DNA of 64,000 nucleotides, from IMG/VR virus record IMGVR_UViG_3300027743_000026, positions 1 to 64,000 of that record. One strand, written 5' to 3'. Of this stretch, positions 3,024 through 45,868 are shown piece by piece. Positions within the stretch are counted from its first letter, which is position 1; each line of letters starts with the position of its first letter. Position numbers and translations under genes: made by a program. The notes beneath the pieces are model-generated. The model made no database searches and was not told the origin of the DNA. It saw nothing but the letters and a program-made list of their open reading frames with translations. Source of the stretch: a virus.

Positions 3024-5210
3024 GTGGCCGAAGACTTCAATATATCGGGCGAGCCTGGAAACGACGTCCACCTCAACCCGGGCGTCGGCGGCTCGATCGT
3101 TCTCGACCCGGGCACTGGCACACAGACCAGGACGATCGTCGGCCGGGACAACGGCTACCTGAATCTGCCGCATAAGGGCCCTCCGCCGGCACCGATCAAC
3201 GGCGACGTCTGGACGACACCGGCGGGCATGTACACCCGCATCAGCGGTCGGACCGTCGGCCCTCTGGGCACCGGCGGCAGCGGCGGAGGCGGCGAGCAAG
3301 GCCCACCGGGGCCTCCCGGTCCGACAGGGCCGCAAGGCCCTCCTGGCGCAACCGGTCCGGCTGGTCCTCCCGGAGCACCCTCAAGCGTTCCCGGCCCGGT
3401 GGGTCCGATGGGCCCGCAAGGGCCAAAAGGCGACACCGGCGCTGCAAGCACCGTTCCCGGGCCAGCGGGGCCTCCTGGTGCGACCGGCGCGCAGGGGCCG
3501 AAAGGTGATACCGGCGCGGCTTCGACCGTCCCAGGCCCCACGGGACCGGCTGGTCCGCAGGGTGATCCCGGCGATCAGGGCCCGCAGGGACCGCAGGGCA
3601 TCGAGGGACCGCAGGGTGTCGCCGGCACCGGCATCACGATGCAGGGTTCGGTCGCCACCGAGGGCGATCTGCCGGCGAGCGGCAATACCCAAGGCGACGC
3701 CTACATCGTGCAGGCGGACGATAGCCTGTGGATCTGGGACGGCACCGCGTGGGTGTCGGGTGGCTCGATCCAGGGACCGCCGGGTTCGCAGGGTCCGCAA
3801 GGCCCGCAAGGTGTGGCAGGTCCGCAGGGACCACAGGGCGATACCGGGGCCACGGGTCCGCAGGGCGACACCGGTCCGCAGGGACCGATTGGTCCGGAAG
3901 GGCCGACAGGTACCGGCGCCGGAGCCGCGACTGGATTCTCCGCCCACAAATCCATCGACCAGACCATCACCAGCGCGACCTGGACTAAGCTCGCGTTCGC
4001 GACGACCGGCTACAACAACGGCAACTTTTTCAACACCAGCTCGAGTCGCTGGACACCGCCAGCCGGCGAGACGACGTTTGTAGCGTCGGCGTTCGCCACC
4101 GGGCTGGCGCTCGGCAGCAATCTTTTTCTCGCGATCTACAAGAACGGCACGCTGTTCAAGTTCGCGACCAGCAACACCACCGACGGCTTCGCGCATATCG
4201 TCTGCAACGATAACGCCGGCGGCACCGACTTCTACGAGGTGTGGATCAACGGGCAGGCATCGGGCAGCACGTTTATCGTGCCGACCGGGAGCAACGACGG
4301 CATCTATTTCCAAGGCTTCCAGGCGAAGGGCCCGCCAGGTCCAGCCGGTCCACCCGGTGCCGATGGCGTCAACGACGGCGACAAGGGTGACATCACTGCC
4401 AGTGGTGGCGGCACCGTCTGGACGATCGACAACAACGCCGTCACCTACGCCAAGCTGCAGGACATCAGCGCGAGCGGGCGCATCCTGGCGCGCAAGAGCG
4501 CCGGCGCGGGCGATGCGGAAGAGGCAACGCTTAGCGAGATCCTCGACTTCATCGGCTCGGCGGCACGCGGCGATATTCTGTTTCGCGGCAACACCGGCTG
4601 GCAACGGCTTCCGGCTGGCACAGCCGGCAACTTTCTAACGACGCAAGGCACAGGCGCTGACCCAACCTGGTCGGCACCGACAGCTGGCGGCGCTGGTAAG
4701 CAGACGATCTGGGTGCCGGCTGGGGCAATCGTGTCGCGTGCGACCGCTGGTGCGGCTCCTGGCACGATGGAGACGACGACCAATAAGAACATGATCCGTA
4801 CGCTCGACTACGATGGCGCGACGCAGGAGTTCGGGCAGTTCGAAATCGCAATGCCGAAGTCGTGGGACGAGGGCCCGATCACGTTCGTTCCGATCTGGTC
4901 CCACGGCGCAACAACAACGAACTTCGGTGTGGTATGGGCGCTGCAAGCACTTGCTCGCAGCGACGGTGACGCGATCGACGCGGCGTTCGGTACCGAACAG
5001 ACTTCGACCGACACCGGCGGAACGACCAACGTGCAGTACACCGCGCCGGAGTCAGCGGCGATCACGATCGGCGGCTCGCCTGTCGAAAACGATGTCGTAT
5101 TGTTTCAGATCAAGCGCAATCCAACGGCTGGCGCTGACACCCTCGCGATCGACGCCCGCCTGCATGGCGTCAAGCTGTTCTACACGACCAACGCCGGGTC
5201 CGACGCCTGA
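3024..5210 (+). CDS. Collagen-like (Gly-X-Y) fibre protein
   Basis: Long GPQ/GPA/GDT triplet runs separated by globular domains. Confidence 0.85.
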
Positions 5211-12954: not shown

Positions 12955-13703
12955 TTCAGATGGCCCTTGATCGCATCACCTTGGCTGAGCGGCCGAGACA
13001 GATTGACCTTGTTGCCGGCCTGGGCGCCCGCGTTAAACGCACCGTAATTGCCGACGCGATAACCGGTACGTGCACTGCGCAGCTTGAAACCTTCCTTCTT
13101 GAACGCCTCCTCGGTCAGCTGACCCTTGAGCACCACCAACGCCGTGCTGGTACTGTGCTCTTTCAGCGCGTTGTCCTGCTCCTTCTTCATTTGCTGCAAG
13201 CGCACGGACAAACGCGCGGCCATGCCGCGTTGGAAACTGATGCAAGCGGACGCCCGCAAGCCGCGCTCGCCGATCACAACGTATTCCTCGGCTCCCTTGA
13301 ACGCTTGGACTTCCGATTCCATCGCGGACATGATCAGCTTGAACAGGTACTCCACCATCTGCAGATCCTGCTCCTGCCCGAAGAACGCATAAGTCGAATC
13401 GGCTCCGGTGCCCCAGCGTTTGTGAAACCAGGCCTTGGTGCCGGTCAACGCGGCAATGGCCGGCACGCAATGATCGACCGGATGCCGGCGCTGACGGCCA
13501 ATGTGCATGTGAATGGTTTTGTAGCTGGCGTCACGAACGTCCAGCTCATTCATTGACAAGTTGTATTGCGTCAGCAGCCGGCCGACGACGTTCATCGCTG
13601 CAAGCGCCTCCTCTTCGGTGGCGCCGCGATCGACGGTCTTGGCGGCAAGCGCTTTGATCTTGAGCTTGACGCGGTCGAGTTCGGAATATTGAGCGGTGTT
13701 CAT
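12951..13703 (-). CDS. DUF2786-domain protein
   Basis: KIKALAAK...ATEEEA..A......L..YNL N-terminal motif; SF..G and G..AG motifs. Confidence 0.75.
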   Translation of the reverse strand: MNTAQYSELDRVKLKIKALAAKTVDRGATEEEALAAMNVVGRLLTQYNLSMNELDVRDASYKTIHMHIGRQRRHPVDHCVPAIAALTGTKAWFHKRWGTGADSTYAFFGQEQDLQMVEYLFKLIMSAMESEVQAFKGAEEYVVIGERGLRASACISFQRGMAARLSVRLQQMKKEQDNALKEHSTSTALVVLKGQLTEEAFKKEGFKLRSARTGYRVGNYGAFNAGAQAGNKVNLSRPLSQGDAIKGHLK

Positions 13704-13710
13704 TTTCAGT

Positions 13711-13740
13711 CTCCTGGTTTTGAGGCTGCTTCAACAGCCC
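13711..13740 (-). promoter_or_regulatory. Leader hairpin (GGCUG-UUGAAG-CAGCC) plus ACCAGGAG RBS, copy 1 of 9
   Basis: Read directly; precedes ATG 13703. Confidence 0.85.
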
Positions 13741-13745
13741 GGGTT

Positions 13746-14003
13746 TTAGATGCCTTCTAAGCCATCATTGAGTTCGACGGCGCCGCCGCCCATGCCGGTG
13801 AGCGTCTCGCCCTTGTAGACAAGCTTGCCCTTGGGCGGGTTGAGCAGGCGCCTGCGCTGGGCGAGGAGCTTCTCCAGCTCGCGCGCGGCACGCAGCAGCT
13901 TGCGCTGCCAGCGGTCGATCGCCTCGGCGTTGATGGCGAGCTTGGTCTGGCGCGCCTCGACCTTCATCTCGGGGTGCTTGGGAACAATACGACGACGCTT
14001 CAT
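13746..14003 (-). CDS. Small basic coiled-coil early protein
   Basis: Start MKRRRIVP after the conserved leader. Confidence 0.65.
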   Translation of the reverse strand: MKRRRIVPKHPEMKVEARQTKLAINAEAIDRWQRKLLRAARELEKLLAQRRRLLNPPKGKLVYKGETLTGMGGGAVELNDGLEGI

Positions 14004-14010
14004 TTCTAGG

Positions 14011-14086
14011 CTCCTGGTTGAGGGCCGCTTCAACGGCCCGGCATTTTGTATTCCCATTTGATATACGAGTTCAAACAGAAAGTCAA
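14011..14086 (-). promoter_or_regulatory. Sigma70-type promoter (TTGACT...TTTGAAC...TATATC) plus leader hairpin GGGCCG-UUGAAG-CGGCCC and RBS, copy 2
   Basis: Read directly on the - strand. Confidence 0.8.
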
Positions 14087-14090
14087 CAGT

Positions 14091-14345
14091 TTATTTAATC
14101 TCCGCCTTGAGGATCGCTGCCCGGCGCGTGGCGTTGTCCTGGTTGATGCTGCGGTACTCAGCCGCGCTGATCTCGATCGCCGGGACGATCTCGGCGCCCT
14201 TTGCCGCCTTGTAGGCGAGGCCTACCGCACTCGCCCATTGCGCGGCTTTCCAGCCGGGAGAATGAGCATGGCTGTACTTGCGGCCGGCGGTCGATCGCGT
14301 GAACGTCTGGCCGTTTGAGAAGGTTGCCTTGTAGTAGGTAGTCAT
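14091..14345 (-). CDS. Small early protein
   Basis: TRST..R.YSHA motif; own promoter and leader. Confidence 0.65.
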   Translation of the reverse strand: MTTYYKATFSNGQTFTRSTAGRKYSHAHSPGWKAAQWASAVGLAYKAAKGAEIVPAIEISAAEYRSINQDNATRRAAILKAEIK

Positions 14346-14353
14346 TTTTCAGT

Positions 14354-14428
14354 CTCCTGGTTGAGGCCGCTTCAACGGCCTTGCATCTCGTATGCCCATC
14401 TGATATACGCACTCAAATCGGAAGTCAA
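14354..14428 (-). promoter_or_regulatory. Sigma70-type promoter (TTGACT...TTTGAGT...TATATC) plus leader hairpin AGGCCG-UUGAAG-CGGCCU and RBS, copy 3
   Basis: Read directly; divergent from the RHH gene. Confidence 0.8.
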
Positions 14429-14448
14429 GCAGACGAGGAGCCAGGACA

Positions 14449-14667
14449 ATGCCAAGCGGCGGAGCAAGAGAGAAGTCCGGACCGGAGAAACGGTTCGAGG
14501 AACGCATCATGATCAAGCTTTCGACCAAGCTGTTGGGGGCGCTCGACGAGATCACCCGCGATGGCGAGACCCGCAGCGAGGTGATCCGCCGGGCGCTCGA
14601 ACGCGAGGTGACACGGTGCCTCAAGATCCACAGTAAGACTGGCGGCAGGGCGTCGGCGCACCTATAA
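14449..14667 (+). CDS. Ribbon-helix-helix (CopG/Arc-like) transcriptional regulator
   Basis: RIMIKLS..LL..LDE...G.TRSEVIRRAL pattern. Confidence 0.75.
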   Translation: MPSGGAREKSGPEKRFEERIMIKLSTKLLGALDEITRDGETRSEVIRRALEREVTRCLKIHSKTGGRASAHL

Positions 14668-14674
14668 TCTTCAC

Positions 14675-14790
14675 CAGCGCTGAACGTGGCGGGTTTGCGC
14701 TCCTGGTTCCATCAAAAGAACAGCGAACCCTAACCCATCAGCGACAGGCCCTCGGCACGGCTTCAAACGTGCCGGGGGCCGCTTCATATT
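14675..14790 (+). ncRNA. Candidate trans-acting antisense sRNA (two stem-loops)
   Basis: TATAAT at 14663-14668; stem-loop 14678-14743 containing CUCCUGGUUCC; 13-bp hairpin 14747-14780 with loop GCUUCAAA; both complementary to the nine leaders. Confidence 0.7.
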
Positions 14791-14801
14791 TGGAGGCCGC
14801 T

Positions 14802-15173
14802 GTGCCGACACTGAAACCGCAAATGCCGGCCCCGCTGCAGCGTCCGCACGTCGACCCGGCGCCGCACCTGACCAGCGCCGGCTCCTGCTCTGACTGCGGA
14901 CGCAAAGCCGTCACCGCCGCCGACAATATGCTGGTGTGTCCGGAGTGCTTTGCGCTCTTGCGGCATGAGGATTACACCGCCGAGCTGCGGCGCAAGCAGG
15001 AACTCATCAACCAGAGAATGAAGGAGACCCGCGAGCGCAATCGCCAACTGGACCAGGAACGCAAGGAGCGGATCAGAGACGAGCGCCGGCAAATACAGCA
15101 GATGATCATCGCCGCTGAGGAAAAGCTAAAACCACCTCAGCAGGATAAGCAGCACGAAGATAACGGCCAGTGA
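14802..15173 (+). CDS. Zinc-ribbon plus coiled-coil protein
   Basis: GGAGG RBS, GTG start; CSDC...CPEC. Confidence 0.55.
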   Translation: MPTLKPQMPAPLQRPHVDPAPHLTSAGSCSDCGRKAVTAADNMLVCPECFALLRHEDYTAELRRKQELINQRMKETRERNRQLDQERKERIRDERRQIQQMIIAAEEKLKPPQQDKQHEDNGQ

Positions 15174-15337
15174 CAGCAGACTGTAAAGCAGCGCCTGCCG
15201 GTGCGAACTCATCAGAAGATCCACACAGTTGCGGGTCGCGGTCGCCGGGGATTACGAAAGACGCCGCGACCCGCACCGCTGATGCTAGAGGACAGCGGTC
15301 TCGTCTGCTTTATTCTCTCGCCGCTGCGGGAGCAAGC

Positions 15338-15538
15338 TCATATCATCCACGCGAAGATCATGATTATCATGATGTAGCTGAGCACGTAGGTGATCGCGTG
15401 CTGCCAGTCGTAGTAGATGAGCGCCCAGATCGCGATGAATACGCCGTAAGAAACCAGCGTCACATCGAGGCGATCAATCTTGAAGCGGCGGTGGCGATAG
15501 ACAACAACGTCGCCCCAATCCCAAAGGGTATTGAGCAT
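15338..15538 (-). CDS. Small membrane protein
   Basis: Two hydrophobic segments; start uncertain. Confidence 0.5.
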   Translation of the reverse strand: MLNTLWDWGDVVVYRHRRFKIDRLDVTLVSYGVFIAIWALIYYDWQHAITYVLSYIMIIMIFAWMI

Positions 15539-15665
15539 TCGCCACCATAGTTTCACAGCAAGCTCCTCAACTGGAAGCGGGTCCGGTCGGTCAGAGGTGC
15601 TAAACGTACCGGACCCGCCCCACACAGGCCGTCAAGCTTGGGTGAAATCGACAGCCTGTATTGCC

Positions 15666-16238
15666 TTACGTCGTGCTCTTCTTCTTACGCATCTTGCTGA
15701 GCGCGCCGAGACCGAGGAGGCCAGACGCGAACAGTGCCAATGCGCCGGGGATCGGCACCGGAGTCACAGCGAGATTGCCGCCGTAGCCCGACGTGCCACC
15801 ACCGATGCCGCTCAGCTGGAGATAGTAGCTGCCGGCTTCGAGGATGCCCGCACCAGCCAAGACCTGGCAGCTGGGCTGCAGGATGCAGGCTTGCGCGATC
15901 TCGGGACCAAACCGCAGGATGTCATCGGCCCCACCAAGCGCGCCTACCTGCTGGTACACTGCGCCTTGGAAGTTCGTGATGAAATCCGTGGGCGCGGGGT
16001 AGACATTCGTCGCGCTCGTTATCGTGACGAAAGACGGCGAGCCGACCAGCTGAAACAAAACCTGGTCGGTGAACGCGCCGCCGCCGGTGCCGTTGATGCC
16101 GAGAGTACCGCTGGAGAAATCACCCGTCCGTGAGGTCGGATTGATCCCAAGGTTGTCGACAACAGCAGCGGACGCTGGTGCCATTCCAAATGAGAATAGG
16201 ACAGTGGCCGCCAGTAGTGCTCTCTTCGTTTTGTGCAT
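15666..16238 (-). CDS. Secreted protein with VPLPA-CTERM (PEP-CTERM-type) sorting signal, FxDxF-like
   Basis: Signal peptide; FTDQVLF; C-terminal VPIPGALALFASGLLGLGALSKMRKKK (motif + TM + basic tail). Confidence 0.85.
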   Translation of the reverse strand: MHKTKRALLAATVLFSFGMAPASAAVVDNLGINPTSRTGDFSSGTLGINGTGGGAFTDQVLFQLVGSPSFVTITSATNVYPAPTDFITNFQGAVYQQVGALGGADDILRFGPEIAQACILQPSCQVLAGAGILEAGSYYLQLSGIGGGTSGYGGNLAVTPVPIPGALALFASGLLGLGALSKMRKKKSTT

Positions 16239-16331
16239 ATTTTAGTCTCCATCTGCTGCAACGATGCAGCCGGTTTACGGTAGCGAAGTGTGGACCGCCT
16301 GGGTAGTTGCCGCTCCCCAGGCGGGGTCGTT

Positions 16332-17003
16332 TTAGGCGGTCGCGAGTTCGGCCGCCTTGCGTTTCTTGTCAGCACGTTTCTTCAGCATACCGATACCGAC
16401 CAGGCCAGCCACGAACAAGCCCGCCGGCAGCGGGATCGGCACCAGCTGCGGAATCGCAGCCGCTTCGATTCTGAAGTGCTCGAAGCCAGTGATGTTGCCG
16501 CCTTGATCAAGCAAGACGATGCTGGTGATGACCTCGCCGTCTCGCGTTCCGAATGTGAAGCCGGATTGCGAGTTGTTGATCGCACCGAGCAGGAAGCTCT
16601 GCACAGTTTCCGGGTTGCCATTCGCATCGACGGCAGAGACCAACGCCGTCACGCTGCCGGTGCCACTCAGGGAGAACACTTCCGTGGTGGTGCCGATCAG
16701 GTTACCTTGGGCGTCGAACACCTGAATCCGCAGATTGTTGGTGTTCGCGATCTTGATATCGTTGCCGTTGGCGGCTGCGGTGAAACCAGTTCCCGCAGTA
16801 CATCCACCTAAGCAACTGAAATTAACGAACCCAGTGTGTTGCCCATTGAACGTACCAATGGCAAGGTTGGGCGACAGAGCGTTGAAGATCACGTTGTCGC
16901 CGGTGCCGCTCAGATTGCTCTGAACGAAAACCGCAGCCGATGCCGGCAGTGATGCGAGGGCCGTGCTCGCCAGGAGCGCGGCCGCAAATACAAGTTTGCG
17001 CAT
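16332..17003 (-). CDS. Secreted protein with VPLPA-CTERM-type sorting signal
   Basis: Signal peptide MRKLVFAAALLA...PASA; C-terminal VPIPLPAGLFVAGLVGIGMLKKRADKKRK. Confidence 0.85.
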   Translation of the reverse strand: MRKLVFAAALLASTALASLPASAAVFVQSNLSGTGDNVIFNALSPNLAIGTFNGQHTGFVNFSCLGGCTAGTGFTAAANGNDIKIANTNNLRIQVFDAQGNLIGTTTEVFSLSGTGSVTALVSAVDANGNPETVQSFLLGAINNSQSGFTFGTRDGEVITSIVLLDQGGNITGFEHFRIEAAAIPQLVPIPLPAGLFVAGLVGIGMLKKRADKKRKAAELATA

Positions 17004-17221
17004 TGAGGTTTCCTTGTCGTGTTGTGGGGTAGTTGCCGCTCCCCCATGATGCTGCAAGAGCGCAGCGCACTAGCCCTAACCAGGGTTACTGCGATGCGTT
17101 CCGGCCAAGGTGACCTTCATCTTCTTGGTACGTTTGGTGAGCATAGCCTTTTTCTGCGCGCGTGGGCTAACGCCGGCCCAGGTCCGGAACTCCGGCAACC
17201 GCGGCGGGCGCTTGCGCTTGT

Positions 17222-17500
17222 TCATGACTCGGATTCGCTTAAAGCTGCCAACTGTCGCAGTGTCCGCTCAATCTCATCGGCGCTGTCTTTCCCGCCTGTT
17301 ATGTGCGCAGTCCACGCTTTTTTGACATGCTGAATCTGGGCTTCGAGTGGAATACCAAGTTGTCTGCACAGTCGAAAGAAGTCTTCGAACATCTGCAGGA
17401 CATTCTCCATGTTTCTCAACTTGTCGGGATCGCCCATCAACTCAAGATGGCGCTCACCGTACTCTCGGAGCAGCTTGAGTTGTTCAGATGTTGGTTTCAT
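17222..17500 (-). CDS. Hypothetical protein
   Basis: Coupled ORF in the - strand operon. Confidence 0.5.
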   Translation of the reverse strand: MKPTSEQLKLLREYGERHLELMGDPDKLRNMENVLQMFEDFFRLCRQLGIPLEAQIQHVKKAWTAHITGGKDSADEIERTLRQLAALSESES

Positions 17501-24110: not shown

Positions 24111-25264
24111 TGTTTAACCCGTGGCGATGGATCAAGCGCCTCTGGTCACCAGCCACCGAGCTAGTGATCCCGGTCACCGTTCCATTGCCCAAGCAACTCG
24201 CACTGGAAGAGCCCGAACTCGCACCGGAAGAGCCTGAACTCGCACTGAAAGAGCCCGAACTCGCACCGGAAGAGCCCAAACTCGCATCGGAAGAGCCCAA
24301 GGCCAAGCGCAAATACAATAGCTCCTACATCGGGCTACGCCGCGACCTCGCAGCCATGGCGAACTACATCCTTGACCGCTTCGAAAGCCTGCAGGTTAGA
24401 CGCTCGGCGGCGGATCACGACGGCCAAAACCGAGCCCGTCTCGGCGAACTCTGGGGCTGCGATTTCCTGATGCTGCACCGCGAGCTTGGCGAACGCATGA
24501 TCGGCGGCAGCAAGTGGTCCGCCGTGGACGCGACGGCCATCGAGCTGACCGCCACGATCTGGCCGATCGACTACGCCATTGCTGAACTCATGATAGCCGG
24601 CGAAGACGGAGCGATTCTCGATGGAATATTCCTGACCCGTATTTGCTCCGTCACTGCCAAGGAGGTGCGCAGCAAGGTCAAACGAGTTGCTCCCAAGATG
24701 GTGCGCTACATCATGGGCTACTTCTATGACAATGGGCAGTGGTCAGTTTGCGAGGGCTATGCCGGTTTGTTCGGAGAGAAATGGGTCATTCTGGCAATCG
24801 AAGCCGATGAGTGGCCGCTAGAGGAAAAGCAAGTCAGAGAAGACCTGATCAATAGGATATTCACCAGCGCCTTTACCGCCCGCTACGACTGGCACGTCGC
24901 GTTCGGAACCATCCCGGGCGGACCGCGGCTGTTGTTTCCAACCAACCCGACCGGCGCCCTGCACCTGTTCAACAACCGCGATCGCACGCCTGGCAAGGCC
25001 CGGCGCGAGGCGCTCAAGCATTGGGTCGATGAGCACTACCGCGACAATAACGAGGACCTCGCCTACGTCTGCAACCACCTCCGCGGCCAGACCCAGTTCT
25101 CCTGGTCCGGCTTCGACAGCGAGCTGTTCGTTTCTCAGTACGATCTGGAAATGAATAAATTCTTCAAGCTGCAGGCCAAGGAGTGGCGTTCGCAACGCAA
25201 GCACAATCGCGTCAAAGTCCATCTGAAAAAGAAGTCACACGAGGAGGCTCACCCGCATGCTTAG
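24110..25264 (+). CDS. Hypothetical protein with ELAPEEP repeats
   Basis: Coupled ORF; five 21-nt tandem repeats at 24195-24299. Confidence 0.6.
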   Translation: MFNPWRWIKRLWSPATELVIPVTVPLPKQLALEEPELAPEEPELALKEPELAPEEPKLASEEPKAKRKYNSSYIGLRRDLAAMANYILDRFESLQVRRSAADHDGQNRARLGELWGCDFLMLHRELGERMIGGSKWSAVDATAIELTATIWPIDYAIAELMIAGEDGAILDGIFLTRICSVTAKEVRSKVKRVAPKMVRYIMGYFYDNGQWSVCEGYAGLFGEKWVILAIEADEWPLEEKQVREDLINRIFTSAFTARYDWHVAFGTIPGGPRLLFPTNPTGALHLFNNRDRTPGKARREALKHWVDEHYRDNNEDLAYVCNHLRGQTQFSWSGFDSELFVSQYDLEMNKFFKLQAKEWRSQRKHNRVKVHLKKKSHEEAHPHA

Positions 25265-38780: not shown

Positions 38781-39571
38781 GCTGCATTCTCCCGCACAAC
38801 AAACCCGGACCGATCGCGCTTTGCCTTGTTTCCCTTGGGCGAAAGCCATACCACGACGTTTGCGGGGTCCAGGTGTCGCAAGTCGTGTTCGTCACCGTCG
38901 ATTGTGCGGTATCCGTTCCATTGCTTGGGGCGCGGCAATGCTGACACCACAGCAACGTTGCGGCCCTCCTGCAAAAGCTCGATGGCTTGCGCGTCGTTTT
39001 CTTCCGAGCGCGAAAACGTCAAGTAGTAGTTTGCTGGCAATGCGCGCTTGAACCGGCGCGCGCTTTTCGTGTAGTCGACAAATTGCACCGCGGGAAACGC
39101 GCTAAAGATAGTATGGGCGCCCGGCGTTACAGTGTGGCCGCTGATCGCGCTCAATTCTGCGGCGAATTCCGGCGTCACCATCACGCGCAAGCCTTCGTAT
39201 GCGATATCGGTCGACCCGTTCGGCCGCAACACAAGCTTGACGCGCTTGCGCTTTGCGGTGCGAATTGCCGCGGCGCTGTGGCGTAGCATTTCGAGCATGT
39301 AGGCTTGTCGGTCGCGCATGAAGTAGCGCGCCTTGCGTTCGCGAGAATCGCGGACCGAATTAGTCCAATCGGTCGCGGCCGATACCATCGAAGCTTGACC
39401 GGATTCGCGGCCAAGGCAAAGCGCAATGCAACCCGGACTAGCATCGGGGCACAAATTGCCGACCCCGGCGGATTCATGCGGCGCCATGTAGTTAATTCCG
39501 TTCAGGTAACGGAACTTTGCCGCTTTGATAGCCTTGGGGCTATCGAACGAATAAAAGCGCTTGAATTGCAT
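38777..39571 (-). CDS. GP88-family protein
   Basis: CP.AS.GC...CL, R.NG.TD, F.DYTK, NY.LTFS.SE.N, GD..DLR..DP, K.....D.SGFV motifs. Confidence 0.75.
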   Translation of the reverse strand: MQFKRFYSFDSPKAIKAAKFRYLNGINYMAPHESAGVGNLCPDASPGCIALCLGRESGQASMVSAATDWTNSVRDSRERKARYFMRDRQAYMLEMLRHSAAAIRTAKRKRVKLVLRPNGSTDIAYEGLRVMVTPEFAAELSAISGHTVTPGAHTIFSAFPAVQFVDYTKSARRFKRALPANYYLTFSRSEENDAQAIELLQEGRNVAVVSALPRPKQWNGYRTIDGDEHDLRHLDPANVVVWLSPKGNKAKRDRSGFVVRENAA

Positions 39572-39579
39572 TTTAGTCT

Positions 39580-39662
39580 CTCCTGGTGTTCCGAGCGGCT
39601 TCAACCGCCCTTCTGAACATTAGTCGCTAATACGTATGCCTAGGTTCAAAAGAAAATGCAAG
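39580..39662 (-). repeat. About 70-bp promoter-hairpin-RBS repeat (leader copy 4)
   Basis: Near-identical to 40243-40313, 40987-41057 and 41952-42020. Confidence 0.9.
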
Positions 39663-39720: not shown

Positions 39721-40233
39721 TCAGATTCTGGTGATACATTCAGGGCCGAATCCCTGGTGAACCGAAGTCGGGACCGTAAGCTTGCGACCACAGCGGCCGC
39801 ATTTTCCTTCCGTCCATATTTCGAGCTGATCGGGCAAGCGGCCGCGAACCAAGGCGCGCCATGTCCAATCGAAGGCTTTAGCGGAGGGCGCGTCGCGGGA
39901 AACGTCACCGGGGCGTGGAACCTTGCGACCGAGCCAAAAAATGTCGCGCGAAATGCGACCTAAATATTTGTAGTCGGATTCGTTGTTTTGTCCGACCAAA
40001 AGCCCGACAAAATGACAAAGCCCGTCGTCGCTAACGGAAATGCGATAGGTGAACCGGGCGCCGGTTTTCTTGCTTGCGAGCGTAAATGTTGCGTTACCAG
40101 CGCGCAAGAATTTGAGCGCGTCGGGCGCCGTCGTGAGCTGTCCGCGCATATCGGCGCCCTTGGCGGGCGCGGGGTCCGCGTCAAGGTTTATATCGTGATC
40201 CAAGCCCGCGAAAATGTCAGAGTGATTGCACAT
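39721..40233 (-). CDS. DUF6011-domain protein
   Basis: GNA.FT..S.KTG...TY; C-terminal CGRCGR.LT.P.S...G.GPEC. Confidence 0.8.
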   Translation of the reverse strand: MCNHSDIFAGLDHDINLDADPAPAKGADMRGQLTTAPDALKFLRAGNATFTLASKKTGARFTYRISVSDDGLCHFVGLLVGQNNESDYKYLGRISRDIFWLGRKVPRPGDVSRDAPSAKAFDWTWRALVRGRLPDQLEIWTEGKCGRCGRKLTVPTSVHQGFGPECITRI

Positions 40234-40242
40234 TGCTTGAGT

Positions 40243-40324
40243 CTCCTGGTGTTGCGAGCGGCTTCAACCGCCCTTCTGAACATTAGTCGTTAATATGTAT
40301 GCCTAGGTTCAAAGGAAGAGTCAA
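40243..40324 (-). repeat. Promoter-hairpin-RBS repeat (leader copy 5)
   Basis: TTGACTC -35; TTTGAACCTAGGCATAC; GGGCGG-UUGAAG-CCGCUC; ACCAGGAG. Confidence 0.9.
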
Positions 40325-40372: not shown

Positions 40373-40978
40373 TCAGGATCGGGGCGGGCGCGCGTTGCGG
40401 CCCTTCGGGGTAACGGCGCCCGCCTTGTTCAGAAGGCCTTTACTGATCAGCGAATCCTTGGCCGCTTGCCATTGCTCGCGGGTCGGGAATTGCGGCGTTG
40501 AGTCGTCGCGGCGCCAAGGATATTCCGCTTGAGTCTTGGCCATGGTGTAACGGTCTTGACCGTTATAGCTCGACTTGAACGAACACGTTGCGCTTAACAC
40601 AATCGACTCGTGTTCGCTCAATTCCGGCGCCGGCGCCGGTAACAGGGCCGCGGCGTTGTCCGGGTGCACGTAGAACGTCAATCCCATATCCTTGCCGCAA
40701 AAGAGCGAGTGTTCGACTACGGCAAAGCCGGGCTTTAGCGTAATGTGCTGATCCTTGCGCGACGAATCCCATGGCGCCGACATATTGTCGGACGCGGCGA
40801 TAGCGTCACCAGTAGCGAGCTGAACAAACCGAAACGTGTTGCGGGTACCGCCGGACCATAGACCAGCGTCCGAAGGAATCGTGACTTGCGTCACCACGAC
40901 AGCCTTAAACTTTTTGCCCGTGTATCCGCCGCGCAATTGCGCGGGAATCATCGCGGCGTCTAGATAGATTGCGTTCAT
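40373..40978 (-). CDS. Early hypothetical protein
   Basis: W.GG.R, VE...FCGKD.G...YVHP, L..KG.L...GA.T..G motifs; own promoter and terminator. Confidence 0.7.
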   Translation of the reverse strand: MNAIYLDAAMIPAQLRGGYTGKKFKAVVVTQVTIPSDAGLWSGGTRNTFRFVQLATGDAIAASDNMSAPWDSSRKDQHITLKPGFAVVEHSLFCGKDMGLTFYVHPDNAAALLPAPAPELSEHESIVLSATCSFKSSYNGQDRYTMAKTQAEYPWRRDDSTPQFPTREQWQAAKDSLISKGLLNKAGAVTPKGRNARPPRS

Positions 40979-40986
40979 GTCGGAGT

Positions 40987-41068
40987 CTCCTGGTGTTGCG
41001 AGCGGCTTCAACCGCCCTTCTGAACATTAGTCGTCAATACGTATGCCTAGGTTCAAAGGAAGAGTCAA
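40987..41068 (-). repeat. Promoter-hairpin-RBS repeat (leader copy 6)
   Basis: As above. Confidence 0.9.
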
Positions 41069-41285: not shown

Positions 41286-41758
41286 TAGCGAGCCCTCGCA
41301 AACGTCTTGACCTGATCGCGGGTAATTTCCCAAGGCGCGTCATATTTTGGCACCATACGAATCGCCTCGGTGCGAATTGCCTCGATAATCTTGCAAGCAA
41401 CCGACTCTTCATAGTCGTTAGTCTCGCAAGCCTGATAATCGAAACAAGAGCAACCGCTAAGGATCAGCCCGACAAGCTTGTGTTGCGGCAAAGACTCGAG
41501 CCCTGCAAACGGGCTGAACTTATAGGACGCGACCGACTCGCCCTCGCGACCGGGCGCCGTTTCCTCGGTTTCGTTTGGATAACGGTTCAGAACCGAGCGA
41601 AGATTCTCGCCTAGCAAGATTCGACCGGTTTCGGTCGCGTTGTCGCTGGTGATATCGATGCAACGGGCGGGACCGTCGACGAAATAGCGCAAGCGCTGCG
41701 ACACCGCGAAAGTCACAAGCGCGTCAATATGATCGTGCGAGACAACAAAAGCAGACAT
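41285..41758 (-). CDS. Early hypothetical protein (L..EN..S...RY / YQ.CE family)
   Basis: Recognisable motif pattern; preceded by leader copy 7 (41766-41791). Confidence 0.7.
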   Translation of the reverse strand: MSAFVVSHDHIDALVTFAVSQRLRYFVDGPARCIDITSDNATETGRILLGENLRSVLNRYPNETEETAPGREGESVASYKFSPFAGLESLPQHKLVGLILSGCSCFDYQACETNDYEESVACKIIEAIRTEAIRMVPKYDAPWEITRDQVKTFARAR

Positions 41759-41800
41759 TGGGATTCTCCTGGTGTTTGCGGCTTCAACCGCGGTTGAGAC

Positions 41801-41944
41801 TTAGGCGAGGGCGAGCGCGACCGCGCGCAAGCCCATCTGGCGGATGGCGTACCGGTCCGCGCGCATGACGCAAAACGAGACCTGAAAGCGGCCGAGTCGG
41901 ATAAACCGGATTCCGCCGACGCGCTTGTTAGAGTAGTTGAACAT
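41801..41944 (-). CDS. 47-aa basic early protein (not in ORF track)
   Basis: Own translation MFNYSNKRVGGIRFIRLGRFQVSFCV...LALA*; directly after leader copy 8. Confidence 0.65.
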   Translation of the reverse strand: MFNYSNKRVGGIRFIRLGRFQVSFCVMRADRYAIRQMGLRAVALALA

Positions 41945-41951
41945 TTTCCGT

Positions 41952-42032
41952 CTCCTGGTTCCGAGCGGCTTCAACCGCCCTTCTGAACATTAGTCGTTAA
42001 TACGTATGCCTAGGTTCAAAAGGAAATGCAAG
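41952..42032 (-). repeat. Promoter-hairpin-RBS repeat (leader copy 8)
   Basis: As above. Confidence 0.9.
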
Positions 42033-45523: not shown

Positions 45524-45793
45524 TCACCATCGCCGCCTTCGTCTGATGATGTAGCCACCGTAGCCGTAGCCGCCGCGCCATCCGCACAGACCCTGAATAA
45601 ACCCGATGATGCAGACGCCGAGCAGTGGCCACCGCATGCTGAGGATGACCAAGGAGAAAATGGTGGTGGCGGTGATGATCCAGGCCATTCCCTCGCCAAA
45701 GCTGGCTTGGTCACGCGGCGCGGTGAAGATGAACAGCAGAACGACTGCCATCCAGACTAAGGAAAAGATTTCAGATTTACTGAGCGGACGCAT
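45524..45793 (-). CDS. Small membrane protein, counter-oriented within the late region
   Basis: Hydrophobic helices and Arg tail; own promoter and leader copy 9. Confidence 0.65.
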   Translation of the reverse strand: MRPLSKSEIFSLVWMAVVLLFIFTAPRDQASFGEGMAWIITATTIFSLVILSMRWPLLGVCIIGFIQGLCGWRGGYGYGGYIIRRRRRW

Positions 45794-45802
45794 AATTTAG
45801 TT

Positions 45803-45868
45803 CTCCTGGTTGGGCTGCTTCATCAGCCGGTATGGTTAGTTGATATACGGGTTCAAAGAGGATTGCAA
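45803..45868 (-). promoter_or_regulatory. Promoter (TTGCAA...TTTGAAC...TATATC) plus hairpin GGCUG-AUGAAG-CAGCC and RBS, copy 9
   Basis: Read directly. Confidence 0.8.

Follow-up and report, generated by a model that had tools for sequence, protein, structure and literature searches.

Between the genes for an RHH protein and a zinc-ribbon protein of an uncultured, myovirus-like phage of soil or sediment origin (record of 72.5 kb), both on the + strand, we find a single-copy RNA element (14669-14790) which displays complements of the two parts of a tag shared by the leaders of nine early genes on the opposite strand. Judging from sequence and modelled pairing, a trans-acting anti-leader function of the + strand RNA is a tentative reading to which we give a little less than an even chance; the element RNA may switch off the nine early genes together. 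Features of the window, that is the whole stretch of 64,000 nucleotides analysed, are collected in Table 1. The initial annotation had proposed a bipartite antisense RNA at this locus, and every sequence feature it listed there (TATAAT, stems, anti-SD, hairpin 2 and pairing motifs) is present at the position it gave.

Nine early leaders and the RNA element

The nine leaders, all of which lie on the minus strand, have a common layout: a hairpin of 4-6 bp with the loop UUGAAG (once AUGAAG), followed after 2-6 nt by ACCAGGAG, with an ATG 6-10 nt beyond it. They form the same set that had been recognized initially. The window contains 16 copies of ACCAGGAG where 1.5 are expected, a count of 16 being reached in 0 of 100 shuffles; nine of the copies belong to the leaders, and a tenth, likewise on the minus strand, is the candidate element. 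The ACC of this word presumably cannot pair with the 3' end of 16S rRNA. Stem sequence, spacer and promoter have diverged among the leaders, the constant parts being the (U/A)UGAAG loop with its closing G-C pair, and ACCAGGAG. The stems vary in sequence yet always pair, and some of their G-U pairs are valid only as minus-strand RNA. One soil contig carries the leader module (39 nt) within otherwise unrelated flanks, and the regions adjoining the leaders differ between G000 and G004. An extra C is present in the ribosome-binding word of leader 3 in the soil contig X5, which is 586 nt long.

Only two TATAAT exist on both strands of the 72.5-kb genome together, one of them bordering the element on its 5' side; this copy is preceded by a poor -35 region. 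The TTTGAAC spacer boxes of the leader promoters, as placed in the initial annotation, are absent near the element on either strand. In stem-loop 1, CGCTGA (14678-14683) pairs with TCAGCG (14738-14743), and the anti-SD is complementary not only to ACCAGGAG of the leaders but also to GGAGCCAGGA in the start region of the RHH gene. The GCUUCAA of the hairpin 2 loop is the complement of the leader loop UUGAAG plus its closing C. The individual matches reported earlier all check: CGGCTTCAA (14758-14766) is complementary to leaders 4-8, GGCCGCTTCA (14777-14786) to leaders 2-3, and the GCUUCAU tail to AUGAAGC of leader 9. So does the bipartite complementarity in antiparallel order, with its two main motifs exposed (2.3 and 0.0 kcal/mol to open). 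Of the pairing motifs proposed earlier, the anti-SD and the loop are free; GGCCGCUUCA is largely buried, its GGCC lying within the 13-bp stem (opening 11.5 kcal/mol) and the motif being only partly free.

Table 1. Coordinates of the leaders, the RNA element and the flanking genes in the window
Feature	Position	Strand	Remarks
Leader 1	13701..13741	-	UUGAAG-loop hairpin, ACCAGGAG, ATG 13703
Leader 2	14001..14040	-	ATG 14003; promoter-like sequence upstream
Leader 3	14343..14381	-	ATG 14345; divergent from RHH gene
Leader 4	39569..39611	-	ATG 39571; GP88-like gene
Leader 5	40231..40274	-	ATG 40233
Leader 6	40976..41018	-	ATG 40978
Leader 7	41756..41792	-	ATG 41758
Leader 8	41942..41981	-	ATG 41944; GGAACCAGGAG gives an 11-nt match to the anti-SD
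Leader 9	45791..45829	-	Loop AUGAAG; ATG 45793
RHH start region GGAGCCAGGA	14437..14446	+	10 bp with UCCUGGUUCC, one G-U; predicted tenth target, same operon
RHH (CopG-type) gene, 72 aa	14449..14667	+	Divergent from leader 3
TATAAT, possible -10 box	14663..14668	+	Perfect; overlaps TAA stop of RHH gene; kept in L002 and L048
Stem-loop 1	14678..14743	+	Outer stem CGCUGA/UCAGCG, inner stem GGGUUUGC/GCGAACCC; anti-SD in open apical part
Anti-SD CUCCUGGUUCC (CTCCTGGTTCC as DNA)	14700..14710	+	8-11 nt complement to ACCAGGAG of nine leaders; opening 2.3 kcal/mol
Hairpin 2	14747..14780	+	13 bp, one U-G pair; terminator-like, weak U tail
Hairpin 2 loop GCUUCAAA (GCTTCAAA as DNA)	14760..14767	+	Opening cost 0.0 kcal/mol
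Tail GCUUCAU and small hairpin 3 (GCUUC/GAGGC)	14781..14797	+	Hairpin covers GGAGG ribosome-binding site of zinc-ribbon gene
Zinc-ribbon gene, 123 aa	14802..15173	+	CxxC...CPEC protein, basic coiled-coil; GTG 14802

Strand of the structure and variation in relatives

At the DNA level no phage in GenBank matched this genome, and in a protein search the top match of its DNA polymerase was that of Rhizobium phage RHph_N65, with only 35% identity; the phage is therefore without a cultured relative. IMG/VR was queried with the RHH protein, the zinc-ribbon protein and its alignment, and two DNA patterns of the RNA element, and by these protein, alignment and DNA-pattern queries the locus is present in one further record only (G004). 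An additional match (L066) is positioned inside a coding region and was dismissed as chance. The leader pattern found 34 stretches in IMG/VR, of which L005, L014, L019 and L036 are relatives; the remaining 30 were single matches with no leader-type promoter context upstream and were set aside. G001, G002 and G003 are near relatives whose sequences stop short of the locus. Scanning metagenomes with alignment A1 gave 18 loci, including two relatives (L047 and L048), the RNA of L047 being identical to that of L002; the other 16, zinc-finger matches of 22 to 26 residues, were discarded. Against genome contigs A1 had zero matches, and the leader pattern 31 single matches, none of them with a 5/5 stem. 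Further variants were drawn from the contigs of four soil runs. Of the listed sequencing runs containing this DNA, none is recorded as RNA.

The + strand folds with -57.2 kcal/mol (z = -5.07, equalled by 0 of 200 shuffles) versus z = -2.88 for the minus strand, where three of 200 shuffles did equally well. Every G-U pair, like the single compensatory change in the relatives, is compatible with the + strand only. In hairpin 2, L002, L048 and X4 have G-U in place of an A-U pair, while X5 has a compensatory change of A-U to G-C together with C-G to U-G; all of these fit the + strand. The three-sequence alignment contains three one-sided changes, each yielding G-U, and no compensatory change among 39 pairs. 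From the z-scores, the one-sided changes that all give G-U, and the changes in X5, we conclude that the structure is selected on the + strand, which is also the strand favoured by the initial annotation. Searching 213,793 bases of the phage and its relatives with a covariance model built for the element revealed no further copy. Neither C4, for which a search had been suggested, nor any other Rfam family matched: at gathering scores there were no hits in the 64-kb window, and at E-values up to 10 the region 14300-14900 lacked C4 and gave nadA (18.9 bits, threshold 37.5), TCL6_2 and scr4677, all far below threshold.

Full-length variants of the RNA are those of the window, L002/L047 and L048. 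The anti-SD is invariant across all of these, and the loop of hairpin 2 is unaltered in every variant seen, X5 included. Stem-loop 1 of L048, with 82% identity to that of the window, retains its shape despite nine substitutions and five deleted bases; one pair is broken (U-G to C-A), and 16 of the 17 positions around the anti-SD are kept. In X5 the 77 nt covering stem-loop 1 are unaligned, which places the anti-SD outside the comparison. The four variants showing the element retain the motifs that they cover, and all come from close relatives. Since the three full-length variants are so similar (about 87-97% identity across the RNA; G004, the single relative compared over the whole genome, shows about 90%), conservation of the motifs carries little weight. 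Because the indels of L048, totalling 5 nt, break all reading frames, the element is non-coding; on these indels two candidates were rejected as coding, a small ORF of 15 codons from GTG 14686 and the frame that is open ahead of 14802. The 471-nt fold also shows a base helix (14652-14659/14802-14809); it is absent from L002 and is regarded as a chance feature.

The preference for the + strand bears on two alternatives. The minus strand could specify a decayed tenth leader, or a decoy RNA which mimics the leaders; it does show ACCAGGAG after a hairpin whose loop is UUUGAAGC, and its own fold departs from shuffles as noted above. We nevertheless consider such a product most improbable. No start codon follows ACCAGGAG (none within about 25 nt, as had been remarked initially), no leader-type promoter box lies upstream at the positions assigned in the initial annotation, the wobble pairs would become A-C mismatches which increase in the relatives, and the model scores 20 bits on the minus strand versus 166 on the + strand. 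In the minus-strand orientation the distance from the end of the hairpin to ACCAGGAG is 39 nt and the stem is 13 bp long; with this spacing, this stem, the missing start codon and the + strand wobbles, the element does not belong among the leaders.

Alternatively, the TTGAA words might be sites for the RHH protein or another protein, the RNA complementarity being incidental. Words of this type occur in the promoter box (TTTGAAC), the leader loops (GTTGAAGC) and the minus-strand hairpin (GTTTGAAGC), and the RHH gene adjoins the element. A DNA site would have no need of covarying arms, however, and the differing leader stems which always pair, in some cases by G-U pairs that exist only in minus-strand RNA, as well as the G-U pairs of hairpin 2 that are valid only in + strand RNA, make this explanation quite improbable.

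Predicted pairing with the leaders and within the operon

In the proposed mechanism the RNA would be made with the RHH repressor gene and would accumulate; its source would be either the RHH mRNA, by read-through or processing, or transcription driven by the TATAAT box (14663). The open top of stem-loop 1 (CUCCUGGUUCC) would then pair with the extended ribosome-binding site ACCAGGAG, and the hairpin 2 loop GCUUCAA would form a kissing contact with the UUGAAG(C) loop, which precedes that site by a few bases in each leader. Together the contacts would keep ribosomes from entering the nine early messages, which run leftward, as well as the RHH message, such that early gene shut-off would be post-transcriptional; the promoters of the early genes are probably closed by the RHH protein as well. 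The initial annotation envisaged a transcript of 110-120 nt. We consider a segment of the RHH/zinc-ribbon mRNA more likely than a free sRNA of that size, and the weak U tail after hairpin 2 (5 T in 8 bases), together with the poor -35 region, makes a discrete sRNA doubtful. There is no space for a promoter of the zinc-ribbon gene, which consequently requires read-through.

When hybridisation was combined with accessibility, favourable sites were predicted in all nine leaders (A, -6.2 to -14.7 kcal/mol; B, -2.0 to -5.5 kcal/mol). The accessibility model was also applied to 110 SD-bearing starts of ORFs of at least 80 aa, among which are eight of the nine leaders; these eight took ranks 1-7 and 16. 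The loop-loop helix is short (7 bp, -7.3 kcal/mol). Full-length RNAduplex energies, for which 1-30 of 200 shuffles were as good, were uninformative and ignore intramolecular structure. The arrangement of CTCCTGGT, 15-100 nt and CTTCAA exists twice in the genome, at 14700 and 25099; first-order Markov genomes had 0.037 per genome, with at least one in 10 of 300. The copy at 25099 lies within a gene, has no hairpin and was rejected as a chance occurrence.

These complementarities could also have a humbler origin. They would be automatic for an element derived from a leader copied in inverted orientation, which counts against the anti-leader reading. The region would then act only in cis, as a structured spacer separating the two flanking genes, with hairpin 2 serving as a partial terminator or as a stabiliser of the 3' end of the RHH message, and with hairpin 3 masking the next ribosome-binding site; the likeness to the leaders would be left over from the inverted cassette, and a protein would read the leader loops. 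Structure on the + strand would be expected anyway with both flanking genes on that strand, hairpin 2 passes a scan for terminator-like features, and the GGAGG of the zinc-ribbon gene lies under hairpin 3. Leader cassettes appear to be mobile (the 39-nt module in unrelated flanks), as are PeSL cassettes in the part of their description available to us (PMC4122927). A decaying relic, however, would not be expected to retain exactly two leader-selected motifs when all else differs (spacing of 39 versus 2-6 nt, stems of 13 versus 4-6 bp), and both motifs occupy unpaired positions. The anti-SD is retained in L048 amid changed surroundings. Its match to the zinc-ribbon ribosome-binding site is limited to about 4 bp, and no anti-SD pairing is among the best sites there, so that the element is no cis anti-SD for this gene. 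On balance we hold the purely cis explanation to be unlikely, though by no means negligible.

The RHH protein matches Pfam RHH_1 above the curated cut-off (23.8 versus 20.5 bits, residues 19-56), and the two changes seen in its first 20 codons in relatives are both synonymous. The zinc-ribbon homologues begin at the same residue, consistent with GTG 14802; P0003-P0007 show 76-82% identity in BLASTP, with P0007, at 62% in the alignment, diverging most. The pairing of the anti-SD with the RHH start region is new here and does not figure in the initial annotation. Its energy is -12.5 kcal/mol in the window and -17.0 kcal/mol in L002, where a change at 14711 lengthens it to 12 bp.

This pairing invites the suggestion that the RNA is concerned with RHH autoregulation only, a 3' untranslated anti-SD pairing with the start of its own message, and that the leaders merely share a favoured ribosome-binding word. 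The 10-bp and 12-bp pairings are among the best found by energy, and the extension by the L002 change is in keeping with such a role. The GCUUCAA loop would however be left unexplained, as a UUGAAG hairpin is missing from the RHH start region. Nor is covariation strict, L048 combining a start region of the L002 type with a window-type 14711, and the long-range pairing is absent from the minimum free energy fold of 471 nt. We regard autoregulation alone as improbable.

Relation to known systems and significance

In phage antisense RNAs of the c4/CI type the mature form is cut from a longer precursor, in the case of P4 CI with RNase P processing. In the available part of a report on P1/P7 c4 RNA, short stretches displayed in loops pair at or beside the ribosome-binding site and block translation (PMC12197685). 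The element likewise has two accessible motifs which are predicted to be complementary to all nine leaders at or near the ribosome-binding site. The RHH start region, a complementary site in the operon that contains the element, may be a further target. It differs from c4 in having no Rfam sequence or structure match, and from both c4 and CI in that most of the predicted targets are nine separate opposite-strand messages across 32 kb, and in that the target in its own operon lies upstream rather than downstream. The initial annotation had contrasted it with these RNAs on the grounds that their targets lie in their own operon; this is correct for the nine leaders, which are elsewhere, but needs correcting for the RHH start region, a strong predicted target in the same operon.

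Coliphage T4 RegA is a protein which represses translation of many early messages at their start regions. Here too a single phage product would act on many early messages, but the proposed agent is an RNA and the messages carry a fixed two-part tag. In plasmid copy control, the pairs CopG (RHH) and RNA II of pMV158, and CopB and CopA of R1, exert transcriptional plus translational control over one target. The element resembles these in placing an RHH-type repressor beside a putative loop-kissing antisense RNA; unlike these cis-encoded countertranscripts of a single target, its RNA is on the strand of the repressor gene and would have many targets in trans.

The leaders themselves recall the SAS and extended SAS of Cluster K mycobacteriophages, in which a conserved asymmetric AGGAG word precedes many non-structural gene starts (PMC3203893). 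According to the part of that paper available to us, some flanking positions are unable to pair with 16S rRNA, an inverted repeat lies just upstream of roughly half of the sites, and the copies point almost without exception in the same direction, with a lone opposite-strand copy in several genomes; in the same part the authors left undecided whether the partner is RNA or protein and proposed no antisense RNA (PMC3203893). By analogy, for the word itself differs, the leaders have a conserved asymmetric SD word close before their starts, a single orientation and an upstream inverted repeat. They differ from SAS in having ACCAGGAG in place of a 13-bp consensus, in host phylum and phage lineage, and in that their repeat forms a short hairpin whose arms covary and whose loop is constant. 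A literature search returned no publication combining a start-associated sequence with antisense.

PeSL cassettes of T4-like phages, as far as the available text describes them, are repeats of promoter and stem-loop which head unrelated early genes and act as gene-swapping points (PMC4122927). The leader module within foreign flanks in a relative, and the differing leader neighbourhoods of G000 and G004, are reminiscent of these. PeSL are described there as terminator/promoter composites for recombination, with no RNA partner (PMC4122927), whereas the constant parts of the leaders are the loop and the extended ribosome-binding site.

More tentatively still than the anti-leader function itself, we suggest that the locus may be a control island, in which an RHH repressor and a bipartite RNA (kissing loop and anti-SD) would silence a dispersed nine-leader regulon as well as their own operon. 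It would then be the missing partner of SAS/ESAS- and PeSL-type sequences and an RNA counterpart of T4 RegA.

Many phages have a conserved extended ribosome-binding word before their early genes, often with a small hairpin, and the question of what reads such tags has stood since at least 2011, as the available part of the SAS paper indicates (PMC3203893). This genome supplies a testable candidate reader: a single-copy RNA with exact, exposed complements of both parts of the tag and a repressor gene adjacent. If the proposal is false, the case would show how sRNA genes can be imitated by mobile leader cassettes copied in inverted orientation. If it is true, the tag and its silencer would be a simple orthogonal pair for synthetic biology. 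Phage antisense control has so far mainly concerned single targets in the operon of the RNA itself. One short RNA silencing a whole class of phage genes would, if true, represent a new antisense layout.

Genome setting and the leader family

The 72,469-bp IMG/VR virus record whose first 64 kb form the window is rated 100% complete. The window has a GC content of 59.7% and encodes a tail sheath, portal, major head protein, DNA polymerase, primase and helicase. A DNA search of phages revealed no close cultured phage; the best match of the DNA polymerase, 35% identical, is from a Rhizobium phage, and the runs in which parts of the region occur derive from soil and sediment metagenomes. TATAAT is present in only two copies in 72.5 kb, both strands counted (window 14663, and 65408 on the minus strand of the whole genome, beyond the window), where base composition would predict roughly nine, a shortfall suggesting that strong -10 boxes are avoided.

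The extended ribosome-binding word ACCAGGAG was observed 16 times versus 1.5 expected. Nine copies belong to minus-strand early leaders, each consisting of a hairpin, 2-6 nt, ACCAGGAG, 6-10 nt and ATG; a tenth minus-strand copy lies inside the element, the candidate + strand RNA at 14669-14790, and has no start codon downstream. The leader hairpins are of 4-6 bp, and their stem sequence varies among copies with pairing always kept, in some by G-U pairs. All loops read UUGAAG except that of the last copy (45803), which reads AUGAAG. The gene products are mostly of unknown function and include DUF7168/DUF2786, GP88 and DUF6011 proteins.

A 39-nt leader module (14346-14384; ribosome-binding word plus hairpin) recurs in a 2-kb soil contig of run X5 with one inserted G as the sole difference. 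Since the flanks of that contig have no alignment to the window, the leader behaves as a mobile cassette. L036, a slightly more divergent relative from IMG/VR whose 6.6-kb contig is too small to span the RNA locus, carries a minus-strand leader in which loop and ribosome-binding word are unchanged (approximately position 3705 in reverse-complement numbering).

Coordinates of the leaders and of features in and around the element
Feature	Position in window	Strand	Description
Leader copies of ACCAGGAG (nine)	13711, 14011, 14354, 39580, 40243, 40987, 41766, 41952, 45803	-	
RHH protein gene		+	5' of the element; 72 aa; Pfam RHH_1, 23.8 bits vs 20.5 cut-off
Stem-loop 1	14678-14743	+	open top contains CUCCUGGUUCC
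Hairpin 2	14747-14780	+	13 bp, loop GCUUCAAA
Hairpin 3 (small)	14781-14797	+	GCUUC/GAGGC; covers GGAGG ribosome-binding site of zinc-ribbon gene
Zinc-ribbon protein gene	14802-15173	+	3' of the element; 123 aa, GTG start at 14802
Strong hairpin	~15231-15276		closes convergent end of the + strand island

Fold, transcript and conservation of the element

The RHH and zinc-ribbon genes form a small + strand island in a minus-strand block of approximately 9 to 23 kb. For segments 12959-13551 and 15337-17495, G004, a relative of 90% identity, has nothing equivalent; on this comparison, gene content beside the leaders and beside the control island is mosaic. The zinc-ribbon protein possesses a CxxC...CPEC motif followed by a basic coiled-coil and belongs to no Pfam family; it has seven matches in public data (76-99% identity, the window's own included), one of them labelled 'ribosome-binding protein aMBF1 (putative translation factor)' by one source. 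The strong hairpin beyond this gene, GC-rich with 11 bp and no T run, lies between it and the convergent minus-strand gene 15338-15625 and may be a two-way terminator.

For 14670-14795 the predicted + strand fold has an energy of -57.2 kcal/mol (z = -5.07; none of 200 shuffles as good), and the minus strand gives z = -2.88. Stem-loop 1 and hairpins 2 and 3 were all kept on folding 471 nt of context. The anti-SD, the motif at 14700-14710 complementary to the leaders' ribosome-binding word, costs 2.3 kcal/mol to open and the loop of hairpin 2 costs 0.0; opening GGCCGCUUCA costs 11.5 kcal/mol because its GGCC sits in a stem. Hairpin 3 may exert cis control of zinc-ribbon translation.

The initial annotation had proposed a free antisense RNA of 110-120 nt. 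That part is weakened, though the pairing model is unaffected. The TATAAT at the 5' edge overlaps a stop codon and has a poor -35 region; hairpin 2 qualifies in a scan for terminator-like structures although just 5 of the next 8 bases are T. A canonical terminator, a GC-rich hairpin with a long T run, exists elsewhere in the genome of a relative (G001, position 5203). The start of the zinc-ribbon gene is 22 nt past hairpin 2, which leaves no room for a separate promoter and makes read-through necessary. For these reasons we think that the element exists, at least in part, as a stretch of the RHH/zinc-ribbon message and may be freed by processing or partial termination.

The choice of the + strand fits the wobble changes seen in relatives. 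Hairpin 2 has one U-G pair in the window; an A-U pair becomes G-U in the full-length variants L002/L047 and L048 and in a soil contig of run X4; and in the X5 contig C-G becomes U-G, another A-U becomes G-C by changes on both sides, and the 8-nt loop is kept. L048 also has U-G in place of two U-A pairs of stem-loop 1. The minus-strand equivalent of each such pair is an A-C mismatch. Against this, one U-G pair in L048 becomes C-A, and the three-sequence alignment contained no compensatory pairs (0/39). Identity between the window and L002 is 96.7% in the RNA, 94.1% in the RHH gene and 74.5% at the start of the zinc-ribbon gene. With L048, identity falls to 82.1% in stem-loop 1, yet the shape of the fold is the same and 16 of the 17 positions round the anti-SD are kept; hairpin 2 plus tail is 95.5% identical. 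The L048 indels disrupt every reading frame. The wobble pairs, the conservation pattern, the frame-breaking indels and the presence of the element in single copy argue that the + strand RNA structure is under some selection, judging from a small comparison that comprises three complete sequences and three partial contigs, each at about 90% identity.

Pairing with the leaders and with the RHH start

Every coordinate of the initial annotation was confirmed in the sequence, and the complementarity that it described was found. When contiguous helices were enumerated and the opening energies of both partners added, the anti-SD site was favourable in all nine leaders (-6.2 to -14.7 kcal/mol), as was the loop or tail site (-2.0 to -5.5 kcal/mol). 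Among 110 starts of ORFs of at least 80 aa with an SD-like word, eight leaders are included and take ranks 1-7 and 16; the ninth, with a 47-aa ORF, falls outside this set. The two-part arrangement is expected 0.037 times per simulated genome, i.e. it exceeds chance expectation. These numbers establish the observation, not function, because an inverted leader copy would yield the same complementarity. The main rival is a spacer acting only in cis and carrying a relic of a leader cassette, which we consider less likely than an anti-leader riboregulator. CTCCTGGT and CTTCAA also come within 100 nt of each other at 25099-25170 (+ strand); this second case, inside a coding region and without a hairpin, is probably due to chance.

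The RHH start region GGAGCCAGGA (14437-14446) is complementary to the anti-SD 260 nt downstream on the same strand. The helix predicted with UCCUGGUUCC has 10 bp, including one G-U pair, and a total energy of -12.5 kcal/mol; the equivalent region of L002, AAGGAACCAGGA, and the L002 version of the RNA give a helix of 12 bp (-17.0). The G/A difference between the two targets is compatible with the same U of the RNA. Since L048 has a target of the L002 type but an RNA of the window type, target and RNA do not strictly covary. One predicted target is thus inside the RNA's own operon, as in c4. An alternative arises from this, in which the element would serve mainly for autoregulation of RHH, though the loop of hairpin 2 is then left unexplained. 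A possible + strand RHH promoter (14381-14409; TTGCAT, 17 nt, TATACG) overlaps the leader 3 promoter in a back-to-back layout that would suit RHH autoregulation.

Known parallels and a proposed mechanism

The nearest functional relative is c4 of P1/P7, where complementary stretches exposed in loops block a ribosome-binding site (PMC12197685). The Rfam search named in the initial annotation matched neither C4 nor any other family, which places the element outside the c4 family. A close parallel to the leaders is provided by the start-associated sequences of Cluster K mycobacteriophages. It extends to the presence of positions unable to pair with 16S rRNA, to an upstream inverted repeat, which accompanies about half of those sites, and to a single complementary-strand copy, present in several of those genomes; the authors left the partner, 'RNA or protein', undetermined (PMC3203893). 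PeSL cassettes are a second parallel (PMC4122927). Literature searches, with few subscription journals covered, found neither an antisense RNA tied to start-associated motifs nor a bacteriophage anti-Shine-Dalgarno small RNA on early genes.

The original interpretation is partly supported: the predicted two-part pairing and the + strand structure survive, and a + strand anti-leader riboregulator is, tentatively, our best explanation. Beyond the ability of the sequences to pair, we infer the following steps. Early host-type promoters would be active in both directions, and the rightward message would yield the RHH protein plus the anti-leader RNA. The loop of this RNA would kiss the leader hairpin, and its anti-SD would close the ribosome-binding site a few bases away. 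Translation of the nine early genes and of RHH would be shut off, and the RHH protein would probably act at promoters sharing a putative TTTGAAC box.
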